Positions 10,058 through 50,756 of a DNA stretch of 64,000 bases are shown here, one piece after another; position 1 is the first letter of the stretch; every line of letters begins with the position of its first letter. Both the position numbers and the translations under genes were made by a program. The stretch is taken from assembly GCA_044226015.1 (NCBI GenBank), contig JBGAHS010000009.1, positions 320,001 through 384,000 on the forward strand. The letters run 5' to 3'. The notes beneath the pieces were generated by a model. That model did not search any database. It had not been told where the DNA came from and saw only the letters and a list, made by a program, of their open reading frames with translations. The DNA comes from Candidatus Obscuribacteraceae bacterium. Lineage in GTDB: Bacteria > Cyanobacteriota > Vampirovibrionia > Obscuribacterales > Obscuribacteraceae.

Positions 10058-11458
10058 GTGGAGCCAACGGATCCATCACTTTACGCAGCAGTAGATCCAG
10101 ACTCGGAAGAAGTATCGAGGATGCTGGAATCTCTGGCTTCTGCTTCAGCGGAGCTGCAATATCTCGTTCAGAGATTGACAGACCAGCTGACACGTCTTGG
10201 CGCCCGTCTGAGAAAAACCCTTTTGAATGAAATCCGCATATCGCGCCAGCGCGTTGATATGTTTTTGAGTTCGTACCTGACTTCTGCCAGCCGTGATAAA
10301 GAAGAGCTTCTGACCCAATTGTCGCAGTTCAGGCAATCTGAAATTCGTTCGATAATGGAAGTCGGCAAAAGTATTCGGCAGCAGACTAAAGAACAATGCG
10401 ACAGAATGTTCAAGGATTACTCTGCTCGAATTCGCGCAGAGCTTGATGAAATTCGTGCCACCATATCTGCCGCCAATCTTGAAGCAGATGTACGCGGAGA
10501 TCAGGTGCGTGTTCAGGCTCTTTCCAAAGAATGCATCGAGCGCGTTAACGAGCTGCTAAATAGTTTCTCTAAACGCTTACCAGACCTGGCTCGCGAAAAA
10601 ATGTCGGTTATCGAAGTTGACATTATTCAGGCACAGGCAATTGTAGAAGATGTGCTGGAAGAGCAACTGACCAAACTGAGAGACGAACTCGATAACATTT
10701 CGACTCAGTCAGCTTCGCAGCTAGAGCAATGCAATTCTTCTCAGCAACTAAAATTTGCTGGTACTTTGAAGCTTCTCGACCATATCGAGAAAAACCTTCC
10801 GCAGCGATTTTTCCTGCACTGGAAGGGGGAAGAAGTCAACTCATACTTTGAAGAAGTCTCGAGTTCGTTTGAAAATTCCATCAATTCTGTTGCCGACCTT
10901 CAGTCGGGTTCGTTCCAGGCCAGATTGCGGAACGTAGCTTTGCAATCAAAGATGGACATTCTCAACAATTCCTGCAACACCGGCGAAGAAATGCGTGCCC
11001 TGCAACAAGAGTTTATCGCCTGGATGTCTGAGCAGCAGAGAAACTGCTGGATGCGTTGCGACTCCCTCTTGCACAAACTTGAACAAGCTATTGAACTTCA
11101 AGTTGAGGCAGACAGTGGAATTTCCGAAAGAGTCAAGATGGCACTGCGTACGGTGGCGCAAGAGTTTAGAGGCAAGACTTTGCAGAAAGCAAATCAAGTC
11201 GAGCTTTATTTTGAGCGTGCAATTGACACCATGATCAAAAACGTGGAAAGCCTGGGTGAAGATTCCTGTGAAGCGCTCGACCATGAGTATGCACAGGCTC
11301 GACGTGACTACGGGCTCATCTATGAAGATATTGAAAAACAACTTGCTGAATTACAGAAAGAGACAATGAAGATCGAGAAAGCTGGTCTCGGCGTTTCGCG
11401 TATCGTCGCCGCCTACAAAAAATCGAACATCACCTTCCAACCGGAGATGCCAGAATGA
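10058..11458 (+). CDS. Long alpha-helical/coiled-coil hypothetical protein
   Basis: 466 aa, E/Q/L/R-rich, few Pro/Gly; stop overlaps next start (ATGA). Confidence 0.75.
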   Translation: MEPTDPSLYAAVDPDSEEVSRMLESLASASAELQYLVQRLTDQLTRLGARLRKTLLNEIRISRQRVDMFLSSYLTSASRDKEELLTQLSQFRQSEIRSIMEVGKSIRQQTKEQCDRMFKDYSARIRAELDEIRATISAANLEADVRGDQVRVQALSKECIERVNELLNSFSKRLPDLAREKMSVIEVDIIQAQAIVEDVLEEQLTKLRDELDNISTQSASQLEQCNSSQQLKFAGTLKLLDHIEKNLPQRFFLHWKGEEVNSYFEEVSSSFENSINSVADLQSGSFQARLRNVALQSKMDILNNSCNTGEEMRALQQEFIAWMSEQQRNCWMRCDSLLHKLEQAIELQVEADSGISERVKMALRTVAQEFRGKTLQKANQVELYFERAIDTMIKNVESLGEDSCEALDHEYAQARRDYGLIYEDIEKQLAELQKETMKIEKAGLGVSRIVAAYKKSNITFQPEMPE

Positions 11459-12768
11459 CGAACGATTCAACACCAAGCCTTCAAGAGATTTATCTGGCAG
11501 CTTGTCGGTCGTTTGATGACCAGACCAACAAGCTTCTACAGGGCTTCAATTCTGCTGTCGACTCCGCCTTGATGGGGTACTCAGAGCAGCAAGCGGAAGC
11601 AATGCAACGTTCTTCCAGTGCTACCTCTTCGCAAGAACGCGAGGTCATGCAAGCTTTAAAAGAGTCACTCGAGGCAGTTACTCAATCTGTAGATCAGACT
11701 ATAGGTGAAAATGACAAGTTTCTGGCTCATGTTCAAGATGAGTTGCTGATAAATTGCCGCAGTCTGCAACAAGAAATTACGGACCTCACAGATGCTCTGC
11801 TTCGCTCGCATAATATCAACTCAAAAGTTTTGCTTGCAAAGTTGAGTGGTCAGTGTGACAAATCTGTTGATGGGGTCCAACAGTCAGCTAACAAATCGAA
11901 GCATTCGTTGCGCGAGCAGGCACATTCTGTCAACACGCAGTTTGGCGAAGGACTCGTAGAAAAGCAGGGACGACAGTTTTCCGATTTGATGGCATACGAA
12001 AACCAGGCAAGAAAAGAAATTCCAGATATGCTTGGTGCAATCATTGCACGAAACAGATTGCATGAACCAAAGCTTTCAATGCTTAACAGGCAACATAACG
12101 ATCAGATTGATGCTCGAATTGATCAACTCAAGTTGAGAATATCGGAAGTCTCAGATGGCGAAATGTCCAGAATCATCACTGCTGCCTCTGCCACTGAACA
12201 AAAACTACGCAGAACTTACGAAGATACTAAAGTCAAACTTCTGAGCACAAATGAAAATCTCACACGAGATTTCCATATTGAAGTAGAAGAGGCAAGCAAT
12301 ACTAGCAGAACCGATATGGCTGAGTTGCTTAGTGTTCTGCGCGGTGAAATGCTTGATACGCTCAACTCCGCGACGAGCACTGAAATTGATCGCGCGCAGG
12401 GCAATCTTGATCGTGCCCGACAACTTTCTGAAGAACTTCAAAATCTAATTGAAGACCAGCGTTTAATCGCTGCTCAAAAATCTACTGTAATTGCACAAAT
12501 TATGGATGAGATGAAAGAGGTTGAAACCAATTTTCAAAACAAAGTAGAGAAGATGTCAGCTGCCCAGCTTGACCGTCTCTCCAGGACTTTTAATGTATCA
12601 CTCACAGATATAACCAACACTAGAAAGAGCGTGTCAGAAAAAATCCAGGGCCTTTGCGACATGTATGTCAAACAGGTTGAGGAAGAGGAAGAAAGAATCC
12701 TTCGAATAATCGAACGAAGATTGGAAAAAGCGCTTGGTTTCATCGAACAAGCGGTTAAAGAGGAATAA
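11455..12768 (+). CDS. Long alpha-helical/coiled-coil hypothetical protein
   Basis: 437 aa helical composition; translationally coupled to the upstream gene. Confidence 0.78.
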   Translation: MTNDSTPSLQEIYLAACRSFDDQTNKLLQGFNSAVDSALMGYSEQQAEAMQRSSSATSSQEREVMQALKESLEAVTQSVDQTIGENDKFLAHVQDELLINCRSLQQEITDLTDALLRSHNINSKVLLAKLSGQCDKSVDGVQQSANKSKHSLREQAHSVNTQFGEGLVEKQGRQFSDLMAYENQARKEIPDMLGAIIARNRLHEPKLSMLNRQHNDQIDARIDQLKLRISEVSDGEMSRIITAASATEQKLRRTYEDTKVKLLSTNENLTRDFHIEVEEASNTSRTDMAELLSVLRGEMLDTLNSATSTEIDRAQGNLDRARQLSEELQNLIEDQRLIAAQKSTVIAQIMDEMKEVETNFQNKVEKMSAAQLDRLSRTFNVSLTDITNTRKSVSEKIQGLCDMYVKQVEEEEERILRIIERRLEKALGFIEQAVKEE

Positions 12769-12771
12769 AAA

Positions 12772-15009
12772 ATGACTACTTCTTTCAGGGCAAAATTCCC
12801 GGCATCAGCCATCAAGAACCTTCGAGTTTTCATGGGACAGGGTGCTAATCCCATCGAATGGGCAAAGCGGGAGAGCGGCGAACTCAAAGTCGGCGACATC
12901 GTTGTTTGCTTCAACCCTGCAAATTTGACTAGCACAGACGGAACTGAGCTTGATGCTTCGGCGCTTATTCTGGTATTCAACACGACGAATCAATCTTCGC
13001 CGATGGGCATTCTTTTGACAGATGATTTCTACGTCATCGGCACCACCGAAACCATTTTTAGGGAGAGAGCTGTTGCTGCCACCGCCCGCGGTAACCATTT
13101 CTCTTTCGTTACTATTCCTTTTACAGGCGCTATGAACGAAGACGCCAAGGCATTTGTGCGTGATATGCAGCGTTGGGGTAGCGGTGGTAATCGTGCTAAC
13201 CCGATGAATAACCTGCCAGACCCGCTAGTCGCATTCTTTGCTTGCGTGGGCTCACCTCTTCCTGCCTCTCCTGTTCTTCCCGTGACCACAATGTCCCAGG
13301 CTTTAATTCGACGCTTTTATAGTCCTGAAATATCAGACCTCAGTGGCAAGTATGCACCCGTGATGGCCGCCGACCAGGCTCAAGACAATTCCTCCATTGC
13401 ATCGGTCACCGTACTTGAAACGGCTGCCAACGAAAGCAAGCCACCATCTGATAGCAAATCTAGTGTAGAGCCTGTTCAAAAAGCAGGTTCGAAGCCCGTT
13501 CTGCCAGAGAAAGGAAGCAAGCCCGAGTCGACCCCTTCTGCTGAAAAAGGGGAGAGTGCAGATACTGCCCCAGCCGAACCGACAGAAACTGGATTTTTGT
13601 CCATAAGAAAGCGTCTTGAAGCAAGACTCTCAGGTAAATTGCCAAAGGGACTTGCAACTCCTGCACAGGGCGACACACCTGCAAGGGTTGAGCCAGTATC
13701 ACCCGTGGTGAAGCTCGTTTCAAATATTCGCCAGCAAATGTCTATCGCTAGCGATAATCTCGAATATCGAGTCAGCACGTTAAAGTCAAAAATGCTCGAT
13801 AGACTTGTTTCTTGCAAGCATAATTTGAGCGAAAAGGAACAGTCTAGCCTGAAAGCTCTCGAAGACCTTCGTGCGCAAATGCAAATGAAGTTGGAAGGAG
13901 TTGCAAATCAAGCTAAGGAAGAACTTTCCAGATGCGCATCGAGGGGAACTGCTCAAGTTCGAGGATTCCAATCTGTCGCCACCGGAAAACTGGCTGATGT
14001 TCTTGCAGAGCAAGAGCAACTAATTGCCGTAAAAACTGAAGAGGCTAAGCGCAAAGTTAACGAGTCTCTGTCAGCAACAAAAGACGAACTCAACAAAACT
14101 GTTAGCCGAGCGCAGCACACACTTCGTGGAGCTGTCACCACTACTGAAGTCAATTTGAATCAAGTCATCAATGCCTGTGCCGAAGGCATGGAAGAACGTA
14201 TTGAGGGCTTCCGTGCACAAACAAATATATTGGCAGAAGGAATTGGGCTCTCGGTAGAGTCTCTTGGCGAAGCAGCGAAATTGCAGGCTCAACAATCTGA
14301 GGAAGAGGTAATTAAGCGCCTTGAGTTGCTATCTGATGAGTCGTTGAAATCACTCAGAGAGCAGTCTGTAAGAGCAGAAATGGAATGCTCCAAACTAATT
14401 GACAAACTTTCGCGCGACAAACTTGTGCCAACTCTGCAGGACAAGAGAAGAATCGTTGTGGAATTATCTGCATTCTTCCAGGATGAATTTTCCGGAGTGA
14501 TGCAAGAGTTGATTGAAAATCGACTTGCTGAATTTGAACCGATTGTACGCTCAAATACCGATGCTTGCGCGACAGCTTTGCAAGATTTCAAATCTCGTTG
14601 GACAAGTAATCTTGAGCAACATCAGAAAGACCTTGATGAAATGGAAACGAAGCTAAAGGACAAAGTTGAAGAATATTTGTCCGGAGCTAAATCTCGAATT
14701 GACAGTATGCATGACATAACTCGTGTAACTGATCATGTGTTGACCAGTCCAGAACTTCTTCGCACCAGAGATGAAACCTGCTTGAAGTTCGACATTATTG
14801 CAAGAGAGCATGTGTCTCGCGCTTACTCGCAGACAGGTGACAAAATTCAGCTATTCAAACAAGAATCACTGGATGAGTTGACTGAATTAAGAGAAAACGG
14901 CGAAACTGTCTTGAAAAATCGTGGTGAAGAGTCGCGTACGAAAATCCGAACAGCGATAAAAAATGCTATGCAACGAATTCAGGACCTTCAGACTCAACAC
15001 ACAGCCTGA
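12772..15009 (+). CDS. Hypothetical protein: N-terminal alpha/beta domain, P/S/K/E-rich linker, long C-terminal coiled coil
   Basis: 745 aa; GAGG RBS; starts 3 nt after upstream stop. Confidence 0.8.
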   Translation: MTTSFRAKFPASAIKNLRVFMGQGANPIEWAKRESGELKVGDIVVCFNPANLTSTDGTELDASALILVFNTTNQSSPMGILLTDDFYVIGTTETIFRERAVAATARGNHFSFVTIPFTGAMNEDAKAFVRDMQRWGSGGNRANPMNNLPDPLVAFFACVGSPLPASPVLPVTTMSQALIRRFYSPEISDLSGKYAPVMAADQAQDNSSIASVTVLETAANESKPPSDSKSSVEPVQKAGSKPVLPEKGSKPESTPSAEKGESADTAPAEPTETGFLSIRKRLEARLSGKLPKGLATPAQGDTPARVEPVSPVVKLVSNIRQQMSIASDNLEYRVSTLKSKMLDRLVSCKHNLSEKEQSSLKALEDLRAQMQMKLEGVANQAKEELSRCASRGTAQVRGFQSVATGKLADVLAEQEQLIAVKTEEAKRKVNESLSATKDELNKTVSRAQHTLRGAVTTTEVNLNQVINACAEGMEERIEGFRAQTNILAEGIGLSVESLGEAAKLQAQQSEEEVIKRLELLSDESLKSLREQSVRAEMECSKLIDKLSRDKLVPTLQDKRRIVVELSAFFQDEFSGVMQELIENRLAEFEPIVRSNTDACATALQDFKSRWTSNLEQHQKDLDEMETKLKDKVEEYLSGAKSRIDSMHDITRVTDHVLTSPELLRTRDETCLKFDIIAREHVSRAYSQTGDKIQLFKQESLDELTELRENGETVLKNRGEESRTKIRTAIKNAMQRIQDLQTQHTA

Positions 15010-16911: not shown

Positions 16912-17805
16912 TTAGCTATTTCTCAGTTTGAATGTCTTCAACATGCCTTCAACTGATGGATATATTGATTTGTCGCGTTCGGGATAGATGGTGCTAACGA
17001 TGAAGAAACATCTGTTGCCTGCCATAAACACCCAATGTCTCCAGTGCACATCTTTGTTGTTTTTGTCTTTTACGATTGATTCAAAGAAGACTGCGTCATA
17101 TTCGCCTACCGTACTTTTCTTTAGATCGCCTGGCTTCGCTTTCTTTTGCACTCGTCGAGCCCATTCAGAAGCAACTTGCTGAGGAACTTCCTTTAGTAAT
17201 TCCTGCTCGTTGCTTTTGTTGATTGAAGTGAAATTGCCGAGGTCGTAAATGTCCATGCCCGTTGATTCGCCAGGAGGAGTGCAAAGTACCCAGTTGCCGT
17301 TATCTTTCGTTGACCAGCCTTTTTCGAGGTTCAGTTCATAGGGTTTGCGTTTTCCACCTTCTTTAAATTCAAAAACTATCGGATGGTTAGACTTTGATTC
17401 GTTAGTTTCCGATTTCGCGGCGTTGTAATTCCATTGGGAATGAGTTTGCAGTGCGATTGCATCTAGGAATTGGCGAAGAGTAGGCTTATAAAAGGATGGA
17501 AATTGCGATATCAAAACGGTTTTTGAAATCTTGTCTGAATTCGTTTGAATTGATATAGAGCGCCGTTCACCCTGTTGGTTTGATTTCAGTTGTGCGTTTT
17601 GCAGTTGCGCGAACGGCACACCCATACCACCAGCCATTCTTTGTTCGAGTATTGTGTTGAGCTGTTCGTCACCAGATTTGGTGTCATTGTTTATTGCTGC
17701 CCTTGGCTTTGCCATGTCGGAGTCGGCGTCGGATGCGGCAAATGTTAGAGCAGCGCTTTGAAAAAATGTGAGTGCTGCTAAAAGGGTTAGTCTGGATTTG
17801 TTCAT
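16912..17805 (-). CDS. Secreted hypothetical protein, possible PsbP/Mog1-like C-terminal domain
   Basis: AAGGA RBS, signal peptide (ALTFA-AS); fold guess from the C-terminal beta-beta-helix pattern only. Confidence 0.7.
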   Translation of the reverse strand: MNKSRLTLLAALTFFQSAALTFAASDADSDMAKPRAAINNDTKSGDEQLNTILEQRMAGGMGVPFAQLQNAQLKSNQQGERRSISIQTNSDKISKTVLISQFPSFYKPTLRQFLDAIALQTHSQWNYNAAKSETNESKSNHPIVFEFKEGGKRKPYELNLEKGWSTKDNGNWVLCTPPGESTGMDIYDLGNFTSINKSNEQELLKEVPQQVASEWARRVQKKAKPGDLKKSTVGEYDAVFFESIVKDKNNKDVHWRHWVFMAGNRCFFIVSTIYPERDKSIYPSVEGMLKTFKLRNS

Positions 17806-17942: not shown

Positions 17943-18464
17943 GTCAGAGAAACGCGGGTGAAAGTCTGACGAAGAGGATCCATCAGTCAAAGAAATGCGG
18001 GTGAAAGTCTGACGAAGAGGATCCATCAGTCAGAGAAACGCGGGTGAAAGTCTGACGAAGAGGATCCATCAGTCAGAGAAACGCGGGTGAAAGTCTGACA
18101 GAGAGGACCCGGAAGTCAGAGAAACGCAGGTGAAAGTTTGACAGAGAGGATCCCGCAGTCAAGGAAACTTGGGTGAAAGTTTGACAGAGAGGATCCCGCA
18201 GTCAAGGAAACATGGGTGAAAGTTTGACAGAGAGGATCCCGCAGTCAAGGAAACATGGGTGAAAGTCTGACAGAGAGGATCCCGCAGTCAGAGAAACGCA
18301 GGTGAAAGTCTGACAGAGAGGAGCCGGAAGTCTGAGAAACGCAGGTGAAAGTCTGACAGAGAGGAGCCGGAAGTCAGAGAAACGCAGGTGAAAGTTTGAC
18401 AGAGAGGATCCCGCAGTCAAAGAAACATGGGTGAAAGTCTGACGCTGCTGTGAAAACTGTCAGA
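17943..18464. repeat. Non-coding tandem array of 12 x 43-bp units plus a 13th half-site
   Basis: Units start at 17943 + n x 43. Each has a 28-bp core GTCA(g/a)(a/g)GAAA-N4-GGTGAAAGT(c/t)TGAC and a 15-bp linker. GTCAGA recurs in register at 18459. Confidence 0.97.
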
Positions 18465-18633
18465 ACGGACCAAGAAGCAGAGTACGGTTTTTCTGCCCTT
18501 GACTTGCAGAAATTCTGAAGGAAAATCTGATACTGCCTATGGTATCAATATTTAATATAAATTCACTGCTCATAACTTGCATTCTCCTATACTTTACCTA
18601 ACATTGGATAGAAACATATCATCAGGTGTGCAA

Positions 18634-19311
18634 GTGAGTTCCATTGCCGCAAGATTGCGCGAGCACTTCAAGACTCTTCCAGCAAACGCATTGGTTTCAG
18701 CCTATGCATTGCGAGCCCTGGGCTCTCCCGATGCTGTTTATAAATTTCTCTCTCGAGAAACTCAAGCCAAGCGTATAGAGAGGATCAGCCTCGGTGTTTA
18801 TCGAGTGAATTTAACTGCGGCAAGACCTGTGATTTCCAATCTTTCAGTGATGTCCATCAAGTCTCTTGCTTTCAGAAAAGATGTTTTTCCAGTAGAAGGG
18901 AATGATTCGAAATTTAGGACCAACGGCTGTAAGAGCGCTCTTAAGATAGGTGGTAAATTGGTCAGATGGGTACCGGCTAGCATCAAAAAGATACGAGCCC
19001 TCTTAAAACTTCCACTTGGACCCGAGAAAAACAATCAGGTTTCCGACACGACGCGAGAACAATTATCGAAGTTTGATGGGCTCAAGGTTTCTATTTTTCC
19101 AACGGAGAATGATCGCTCAGCGATTCCAATAGCAGCAACAACTTCTCTAGAGTTGAGGTATGAAATCCAGAAATTAATACATGTTCTATGTCGGGTAACC
19201 GGAAATAACGGCTGGCGAGTTCCGCTGCAGCAGGCAAATACAGCACTGTTTTCCTTTCCTTATTTTGTTCCCCTTCCAATAGAAAGGGGGTACCTGCGTA
19301 CCCCCTTTTGA
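18634..19311 (+). CDS. AbiEi-like / DUF6088-like winged-helix protein (orphan type IV antitoxin-like)
   Basis: N-terminus LGSPDAVYKFLSRETQAKRIERISLGVY matches the AbiEi wHTH pattern; TNGCKSALKIGGKLVRWVPAS resembles the DUF6088 second region. GTG 18634 follows AGGTG; the ORF is open from 18577. Confidence 0.7.
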   Translation: MSSIAARLREHFKTLPANALVSAYALRALGSPDAVYKFLSRETQAKRIERISLGVYRVNLTAARPVISNLSVMSIKSLAFRKDVFPVEGNDSKFRTNGCKSALKIGGKLVRWVPASIKKIRALLKLPLGPEKNNQVSDTTREQLSKFDGLKVSIFPTENDRSAIPIAATTSLELRYEIQKLIHVLCRVTGNNGWRVPLQQANTALFSFPYFVPLPIERGYLRTPF

Positions 19312-19312
19312 A

Positions 19313-20047
19313 CTAACCTTTGTCTGTTGGTGCCTCTTTGTGCTCACCACCAGGTCCGCCATGGTGCCCGCGATGGCCACCTGGACCTCCGTGTCCACCC
19401 GGACTGCATCCACCGCCACCGCCGCCGCCGCTTCTATGACCCCATCCGTGGTGCCTCATTTTTCCATGCATCATCATTGGACCGAAATCCATCATCTTGA
19501 TGTAGCTCTTTCTCAGTTCTTTTCGCTGCTCGGCAGTCAGCGTATTGAGTAAGCTAATTCGCTGTTCCAGTTTCATGTTTGCCAGGTCATTGTGAAGCGA
19601 ATTGATCTTGCTCTGTAAGCTCATAGCCTTGCTTTTATCAAAGTCTGGTTGGGTCAATAAATCATGAAGTGCTCTTTCTTGGGATTTGAGCTCAACCATT
19701 TTTGGTCCTGCTTTATCAAGAAAGTCGTTCTTTGCTTTGTACATCTGCTCTAGTTGTTCGTCAGTGAAATCACTGTGAACGCCAGCTCGGAGCATCATCA
19801 CGTCCCCACCGCCATGAAAAGCTATGTTATCGCCGCCTTCATCTGGACCGCCAGGGCCTGGAGGAGGCTCTGGAGGACCCCCGAACGGTTGTGGTGGCAT
19901 AGGTGGATTTAGTGACACATCAACACCGTCCATTAATTCCGTCGCAACACCCGGTTCAGCCTCTTGTGCAAAAGCTGCTGGTAAAAGAGAAATGCTAGTA
20001 GCGCCCAAAACCCCTAATAACAGGGCAAGACGACTTGTTCTTTTCAT
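19313..20047 (-). CDS. Spy/CpxP/ZraP-family periplasmic protein with His/Gly-rich tail
   Basis: Signal peptide, FTDEQ and LTAEQ (LTxxQ) motifs, GAGG RBS. Confidence 0.85.
   Translation of the reverse strand: MKRTSRLALLLGVLGATSISLLPAAFAQEAEPGVATELMDGVDVSLNPPMPPQPFGGPPEPPPGPGGPDEGGDNIAFHGGGDVMMLRAGVHSDFTDEQLEQMYKAKNDFLDKAGPKMVELKSQERALHDLLTQPDFDKSKAMSLQSKINSLHNDLANMKLEQRISLLNTLTAEQRKELRKSYIKMMDFGPMMMHGKMRHHGWGHRSGGGGGGGCSPGGHGGPGGHRGHHGGPGGEHKEAPTDKG

Positions 20048-49260: not shown

Positions 49261-50756
<1,496 letters not shown>

Follow-up and report, generated by a model that had tools for sequence, protein, structure and literature searches.

We find that a tandem array of twelve 43-bp units in a genome of Candidatus Obscuribacteraceae bacterium is probably the amplified self-operator of an orphaned, truncated and spreading DUF6088 antitoxin gene. 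The winged helix-turn-helix (wHTH) domain of the encoded protein would bind each unit, repressing its own promoter; the surplus copies are predicted to serve as a buffer or sink. The array sits on contig C3 of an 8.19-Mb genome (G000), within the 64,000-nt stretch of DNA that was analysed, hereafter the window. Its features, in window positions, are:

17943..18458, plus strand: tandem array of 12 x 43 bp (TRF and half-site reading), putative operator of the adjacent protein
18459..18464, plus strand: lone thirteenth half-site GTCAGA, in register after a differing 15-nt linker
18505..18531, plus strand: degenerate promoter-proximal site TGCAGA-N15-TCTGAT (family matrix score 10.2)
18634..19311, plus strand: solo DUF6088/AbiEi-derived gene, 225 aa (homologues, profile match, structure model)
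19283..19309, minus strand: GC-rich hairpin just past the stop of the convergent host gene, seen by eye and likely its terminator
19313..20047, minus strand: host flank, Spy/LTXXQ-like gene (below the Pfam cut-off), convergent to the solo gene
16912..17805, minus strand: host flank, 297-aa gene of no known family

TRF reported a period of 43, 11.7 copies, 91% matches, 0% indels and a score of 673. Together with a reading of the individual units, this bears out the twelve 43-bp units described in an earlier account made from the letters alone (the sequence-only reading). The half-sites which that account placed every 21–22 bp recur at alternating intervals of 22 and 21 bp, and both its in-register GTCAGA at 18459 and its degenerate site nearer the gene are present. 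It had also given every unit the form GTCAGA-N16-TCTGAC; the inverted half-sites do lie at N16, but the exact form occurs in only 4/12 units, the left half being exact in 6/12 and the right half in 8/12. The consensus, with one palindrome per unit, is GTCA(G/A)(A/G)-N16-T(C/T)TGAC, the left half of unit 10 reads GTCTGA, and the only part invariant across all 12 units is GTC...TGAC. Scored with a family half-site matrix trained on other genomes, 7/12 units reach 5.9–14.4 at N16 and the remaining 5/12 fall below the cut-off of 5. In 4 DNA runs the contigs end at the array and thus give no copy number for it. A promoter scan was at chance level (5 found vs 4.2 expected). Separately, 32 nt at the degenerate site (18512-18543) resemble G000:C3:163355-163386 (L005; 91%, E 2e-4), possibly by chance; by eye, this match is the start of a gene resembling the Spy-like neighbour.

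The likeliest start of the solo gene is the GTG at 18634 (225 aa, as in database protein P0001), which lies 175 bp past the array; the array had rightly been placed upstream, though at 170 bp. In the protein, a wHTH over residues 1-60 is followed by a helix and beta region to about residue 123 and a low-confidence tail. Searches against Pfam and NCBIfam returned no family match, including none above the PF19570 cut-off, and the family assignment rests on homologues and the structure model. Among 11 aligned homologues, 8 match DUF6088 (best 4e-19) and 5 match AbiEi_4 at E <= 1, and their alignment, used as a profile, hits a plasmid protein annotated as DUF6088 with 98% probability (E 1e-14) over window residues 16-134. 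The AlphaFold model has pLDDT of ~90 over residues 1-60, is confident to about residue 120 and falls below 50 at residues 129-169 and 191-225. In a fold search the model matched many wHTH domains; the S. agalactiae AbiEi chain (6y8q) was the sole one aligned past the wHTH among the 50 matches listed, over 103 residues (Z 7.2, a value within the range that the tool calls common; rmsd 3.7). Foldseek matched no PDB entry at E <= 0.001, and a word-index protein search found 2 proteins only. The sequence-only reading had called the ORF an AbiEi/DUF6088-like wHTH protein and proposed an HMM search and a structure prediction: the HMM search succeeded for most of the aligned homologues and not for the ORF itself, the prediction gave a confident wHTH with an AbiEi alignment beyond it, and the identification is upheld by the homologues, the plasmid-protein profile match and the fold search.

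Family similarity stops near residue 134, the C-terminal helices of the family are unrecognisable in the window protein, and by alignment and model the complete C-terminal (antitoxic) domain is absent. The protein sits on a long branch in a quick tree and has Y at residue 36, where D is nearly conserved in the family. Comparison with its paralogue on contig C10 gives pN 0.38 vs pS 0.77 over ~124 codons, which by this measure shows purifying selection on the N-terminal half. Judged by its homologues and model, the ORF is a diverged winged-helix protein of DUF6088/AbiEi type, truncated and toxin-less.

The missing toxin and convergent next gene of the sequence-only reading are both confirmed; AbiEii (PF08843) has no match anywhere on the window's contig. 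The two flanking genes of the host stand side by side in G007 and G002, both congeners, and leave no room for gene and array; in G006 their orthologues lie on separate contigs, and no orthologue of the 297-aa gene was found in G003 or G004. The last codons of the solo ORF run through the hairpin at 19283..19309, which is absent from the list of a terminator scan, and thus the end of the protein's tail is likely captured host DNA. No ParB/SopB-type protein or ParA was present among 9 proteins scanned around the array, and the array region had no match in Rfam. Elsewhere, the window holds a 16S rRNA gene (49264-50756, minus strand) and, at 10058-15009, three adjacent genes for long proteins with weak, below-cut-off Pfam matches of coiled-coil type.

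The gene family was surveyed in 103 genomes of the bacterial family, 3 of the sister family and a plasmid collection. Its profile found the gene in 93/103 and 0/3 genomes respectively, with family matches reaching at least 28 in one genome. A convergent host gene faces 79 of the 108 loci examined. A co-oriented ORF within 150 nt was seen at 12/108 loci, and 0/12 match AbiEii, in a screen that missed one split AbiEii behind the C12 member in G000, found by a separate PF08843 search. Moreover, a promoter-like GAAC...CGT(A/T) motif lies ahead of 86/108 loci (controls 0); the window gene is without it. Of 20 copies fetched from G016, 14 share 94-98% identity with a single reference copy and have unrelated flanks. 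The identity begins 140-167 bp ahead of the modelled start and reaches to within 14 bp of the stop codon; these copies have a further site ~215 bp upstream. A pair in G001 is 99.8% identical over 841 bp, ending 12 and 42 nt before different stops, and the tails differ. Inspection by eye of the junctions in G016 and in the G001 pair showed no terminal repeats, target duplication or transposase, and by these features the solo unit itself does not class as an insertion sequence. Gene conversion among old copies could explain the G016 pattern, and less well the sharp ends in G001. In genus g20 the loci are mostly stable orthologues, so movement there is rare; no enzyme that would mobilise the unit was found. 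Two G001 loci, L071 and L073, each have an upstream site that repeats their own start-proximal site in inverted orientation, inner bases included, a pattern that suggests local copying of the site.

A palindrome recurs ahead of these genes. The pattern GT(T/C/A)AGA-N14-TCT(A/G/T)AC lies within 300 bp upstream, at <=1 mismatch, in 17/47 loci from 27 genomes (controls: coding 0, far 1, shuffles 0.2), the set having been thinned of G000, G007, duplicates and near-identical copies, the pattern chosen after the sequences were viewed, and related loci not being independent. At <=2 mismatches the count is 26/47. The spacing peaks sharply at N14 in family loci and is N16 in the window. At most loci the palindrome is single and lies over the promoter and start region. 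A similar site stands at the start of 3/4 plasmid DUF6088 genes inspected, two with N16 and one with N14. Since AbiEi and Rv2827c are reported, in the available part of the source (PMC7319586), to bind inverted repeats in their own promoters, we read the palindrome as the likely DUF6088 operator, which the window unit matches. This comparison favours the earlier proposal that the unit holds the binding site of a family protein.

The same proposal had asked whether half-sites covary with the recognition helix, and residue 37 of that helix does track half-site type, with a called site at 50/69 genome loci and kin that are not independent. Where residue 37 is Q, T stands at half-site position 2 in 45/52 half-sites; where it is I, L or M, A stands there in 15/18. 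Loci with I or L and a called site have GA-type half-sites in 7/7 cases. Where the residue is K, position 3 is C in 16/20 half-sites, and the window combines K37 with GTC. The correspondence is suggestive only.

G000 has four members of the gene family. The C10 paralogue, 48% identical to the window protein, is preceded by 13 units of the same repeat family, and its array likewise closes with a lone half-site, 43 bp past the last unit. The C11 member is without an array. The C12 member has a single N16 site just ahead of its start, the top-scoring site genome-wide with the family matrix, and is followed by AbiEii in two pieces in different reading frames (G000:C12:311518-313067), which may be a broken gene or an assembly error. 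A third array of the repeat family, of 6 units (G000:C10:288746-289008, L002), has no family gene nearby. The repeat family forms just these three arrays in the genome: two precede the solo gene family and the third is gene-less. The three arrays have half-sites and N16 spacing in common and differ in their linkers. Arrays stand at 2/3 solo paralogues vs 44/5620 crude genes of G000 with a non-coding array within 300 bp upstream. The genome holds 165 tandem arrays with a period of 30-125 bp, of which 76 are likely non-coding; at least 18 of the latter share a GGTACC/ATACCGG-type core and 9 a GCGAAGCGATAGC core. A 23-nt exact fragment of the window repeat unit lies at G000:C1:1131257-1131286 (L004), far from family genes. 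A scan of G000 for the site showed no enrichment (75 matches vs 75 expected), and on this count a regulon or REP-like spread of the site in that genome was rejected.

Elsewhere the pairing of gene and array is patchy. In G007, which has 13 family matches, site arrays adjoin 7/7 loci examined (4 upstream, 3 downstream), and in genus g20 they occur at 18/32 loci, in five genomes and about five orthologous positions. In G082 the count is 5/8 loci vs 0/332 control genes. Outside G000, G007 and genus g20, an array of the site, even of two copies, was found at 1/65 loci, a count from which short-read drafts may conceal some arrays; the near-complete G016, G084 and G001 show none. Array-bearing loci fall into four separate groups in a quick tree. 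Most loci outside two genera being array-less, arrays are dispensable. Periods at homologous loci are 35, 36, 38, 39, 41, 42, 43, 48, 49, 84 and 117 bp, and orthologous loci have 1, 4 or 17 sites; arrays are thus optional, repeated expansions and neither phased nor obligate. The survey of homologues proposed by the sequence-only reading therefore supports its two-part module of gene and array in that a paralogue and two genera show the pairing again, but not as an obligate arrangement, and the helical phasing that it saw is not supported, given periods of 35-117 bp.

The same type of palindrome is a landing place for insertion sequences. A 1624-bp element encoding a 501-aa DDE transposase with a C-terminal DUF6088/AbiEi_4 wHTH (E 3e-8) is present in G082 in six copies, 99% identical, and 6/6 copies lie at the centre of an N14 palindrome (0-2 mismatches) with a 5-bp target duplication. 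A second G082 element, with a weak C-terminal wHTH, lies ~10 bp beside the palindrome in 4/4 copies; its relatives in G076 and G077 likewise lie beside such a palindrome, and control DNA had 1 such site in 396 kb. Relatives of the G082 elements are annotated as ISNCY or generic transposase. The family palindrome does not adjoin seven further loci of wHTH-bearing transposases: L126 lies within another palindrome and L129 within another array, and L127, L128, L130, L150 and the locus on G000:C2 show none. No transposase without a wHTH was located at the family palindrome. The L129 element (G069) lies inside a tandem array of ~36-bp period, as read by eye, with the right half-site only. At G000:C2:46039-49171 a pair of ISNCY-like transposase genes face each other; one has a weak C-terminal wHTH and the other is stop-interrupted. 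Related transposases at L131, L132, L135 and L137 carry another C-terminal domain (WRTxxDP motif), and this type adjoins a common 13-bp GATCAACGACAAT-like motif in 4/5 loci with a readable flank. The sequences suggest that the C-terminal targeting domains of these transposases are swappable. The wHTH-type element on G000:C2 shows a loose match to the GATCAACGACAAT-like motif. A region search with the transposase C-terminal part returned only itself among 141 candidates, a result that says nothing on the rarity of such fusions.

The palindrome also occurs by itself, with 82 exact matches in G082 (control 0) and dispersed gene-less copies in G082, G016 and G069, nearly all intergenic where checked. 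Many dispersed sites in G082 (L158-L168) are part of longer, nearly perfect palindromes that end in A and T tails and could double as two-way terminators.

Several other explanations of the window array have to be weighed. The units may derive from an operator that the diverged protein no longer binds, leaving a neutral variable-number repeat. G000 is repeat-prone, with its 76 likely non-coding arrays, the third array is gene-less, copy number differs among orthologues, the window protein is truncated and on a long branch, and among the differences listed for a second strain are 2 synonymous and 2 non-synonymous changes with the last codon changed. Against such decay, the N-terminal half appears to be under purifying selection (pS 0.77, pN 0.38), the three arrays keep half-sites and N16 despite differing linkers, and residue 37 fits the half-site type, so that we consider a relic rather unlikely. 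Conflict with insertion sequences, in which solo proteins shield palindromes from transposases with the same domain or arrays serve as harmless decoys, is a distinctly doubtful account. Shielding is favoured by G082, where all 10 insertion-sequence copies are at dispersed sites and none is in the array adjoining a solo gene, although that array holds 8/16 intact sites of the type; one wHTH-bearing element inside a tandem array in G069 would fit a decoy, and G000 itself encodes a wHTH-bearing transposase on C2. However, G016 has many solo copies and no match to the insertion-sequence family, array sites and insertion targets differ in inner sequence, and the G000 arrays are free of insertion sequences.

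The F-plasmid sopC site consists of twelve 43-bp units with an inverted repeat and works with SopB. The window array has the same figures, and the sequence-only reading had raised a centromere-like, helically phased nucleoprotein filament. We now regard this as very improbable: the period varies between 35 and 117 bp, an array may stand on either side of its gene, 1/65 other loci has one and orthologues have 1, 4 or 17 sites, so that homologues keep neither period nor copy number; the protein is a wHTH of a different fold and not a ParB; and the neighbours are host genes, adjacent in congeners. We give hardly any weight to a transcribed repeat RNA processed into fragments of 43 nt. The region does fold better than 100 shuffles (z-score -5.2), but the centroid is almost unpaired, the frequency of the minimum-energy fold is 0, Rfam gives no match, the units are near-identical with no variable spacers, and most loci have the site singly over promoters and start regions. 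A CRISPR-like or TIGR-like RNA array was rejected, the units being 91% alike along their whole length, with no variable spacers and no Rfam match.

Our preferred reading of an amplified self-operator draws on several steps. Intact DUF6088 genes have one such site at their start, and within the bacterial family the gene is mostly toxin-less with many dispersed copies. Site, promoter and gene would be copied together into further intergenic positions, with neither terminal repeats nor a target duplication, possibly by recombination anchored on dispersed palindromes on the left with an illegitimate joint near the stop codon, in which case the flank would supply the protein's tail. Some lineages have the site in tandem at variable copy number; slippage or unequal exchange may expand it, perhaps aided by bound protein, and the array may act as a titration sink. 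DDE insertion sequences with a related C-terminal wHTH lie in or beside the palindrome, and this domain would choose their target.

Known systems resemble parts of this arrangement. As in REP/BIME/REPIN elements with RAYT, so far as the available descriptions go, a gene stands beside cognate tandem palindromes and dispersed intergenic copies occur in some genomes (G082, G016 and G069) and not in G000. Insertion sequences target REPs, and here too they land at palindromes. Unlike RAYT, the window gene encodes an antitoxin-derived wHTH with no HUH transposase match and its flanks are host genes; unlike REPs, the site is not enriched genome-wide in G000. The arrangement thus resembles REP/RAYT minus the transposase. 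In the accessible parts of work on AbiE/MenAT (S. agalactiae AbiEi, M. tuberculosis Rv2827c; PMC7319586; bioRxiv 10.64898/2026.01.19.700257), the protein has, as in the window, an N-terminal wHTH and a second domain, of which the window protein keeps part, and inverted repeats precede the gene. In those systems the promoter has 2 or 4 repeats, each of 23 bp, and the antitoxin gene has a nucleotidyltransferase toxin as partner, whereas the window has 12 sites, no toxin and a truncated second domain, and the family has dispersed solo copies. The window gene may thus work like AbiEi autoregulation, yet the locus is no AbiE system because toxin and antitoxic domain are missing. Pairs of DUF6088 (PF19570) with AbiEii are recorded in the available text of PMC12654330; they involve the same protein family as the window, with the same palindrome at the start of 3/4 plasmid genes, whereas the window gene is solo and itself without a Pfam match, and its site is in tandem. 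The ISAba32 subgroup of IS1202, whose C-terminus is described as non-conserved, inserts 5-6 bp from Xer sites, according to the part of the source available (bioRxiv 10.1101/2022.12.17.520857). These elements and those of G082 are both of DDE type, and both insert at a set distance from a palindrome that a protein binds; they appear analogous, not the same, the G082 elements having a C-terminal DUF6088/AbiEi_4 wHTH. In the literature covered, partly available and with supplements, ISfinder and most subscription journals outside its scope, we found neither the operator nor the expansion of the family nor the wHTH-bearing elements described. Papers on orphan AbiEi antitoxins or transposase-AbiEi wHTH fusions included, by title and abstract opening, none on the window system, the papers listed on IS481 targets showed nothing on it, and the search found nothing on tandem repeats in Obscuribacterales.

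A broader possibility, put forward tentatively, is that of a selfish DNA-binding gene and its own site: a toxin-free antitoxin that spreads, seeding and amplifying its palindrome, whose wHTH was captured by ISNCY-type insertion sequences as a swappable targeting domain, so that solo proteins, arrays and transposases would compete for one site. If this were true, a one-residue recognition-helix code would permit retargeting of the transposase among natural palindromes. Moreover, if binding holds, DUF6088 proteins gain a predicted operator and a candidate recognition code. The target of the insertion sequences seems to follow the C-terminal domain, with wHTH types at the palindrome and the other type beside the 13-bp motif. 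This is relevant to the way in which mobile elements locate safe sites, and to modular transposases directed to a site. Throughout a bacterial family, an antitoxin gene persists and multiplies without its toxin.
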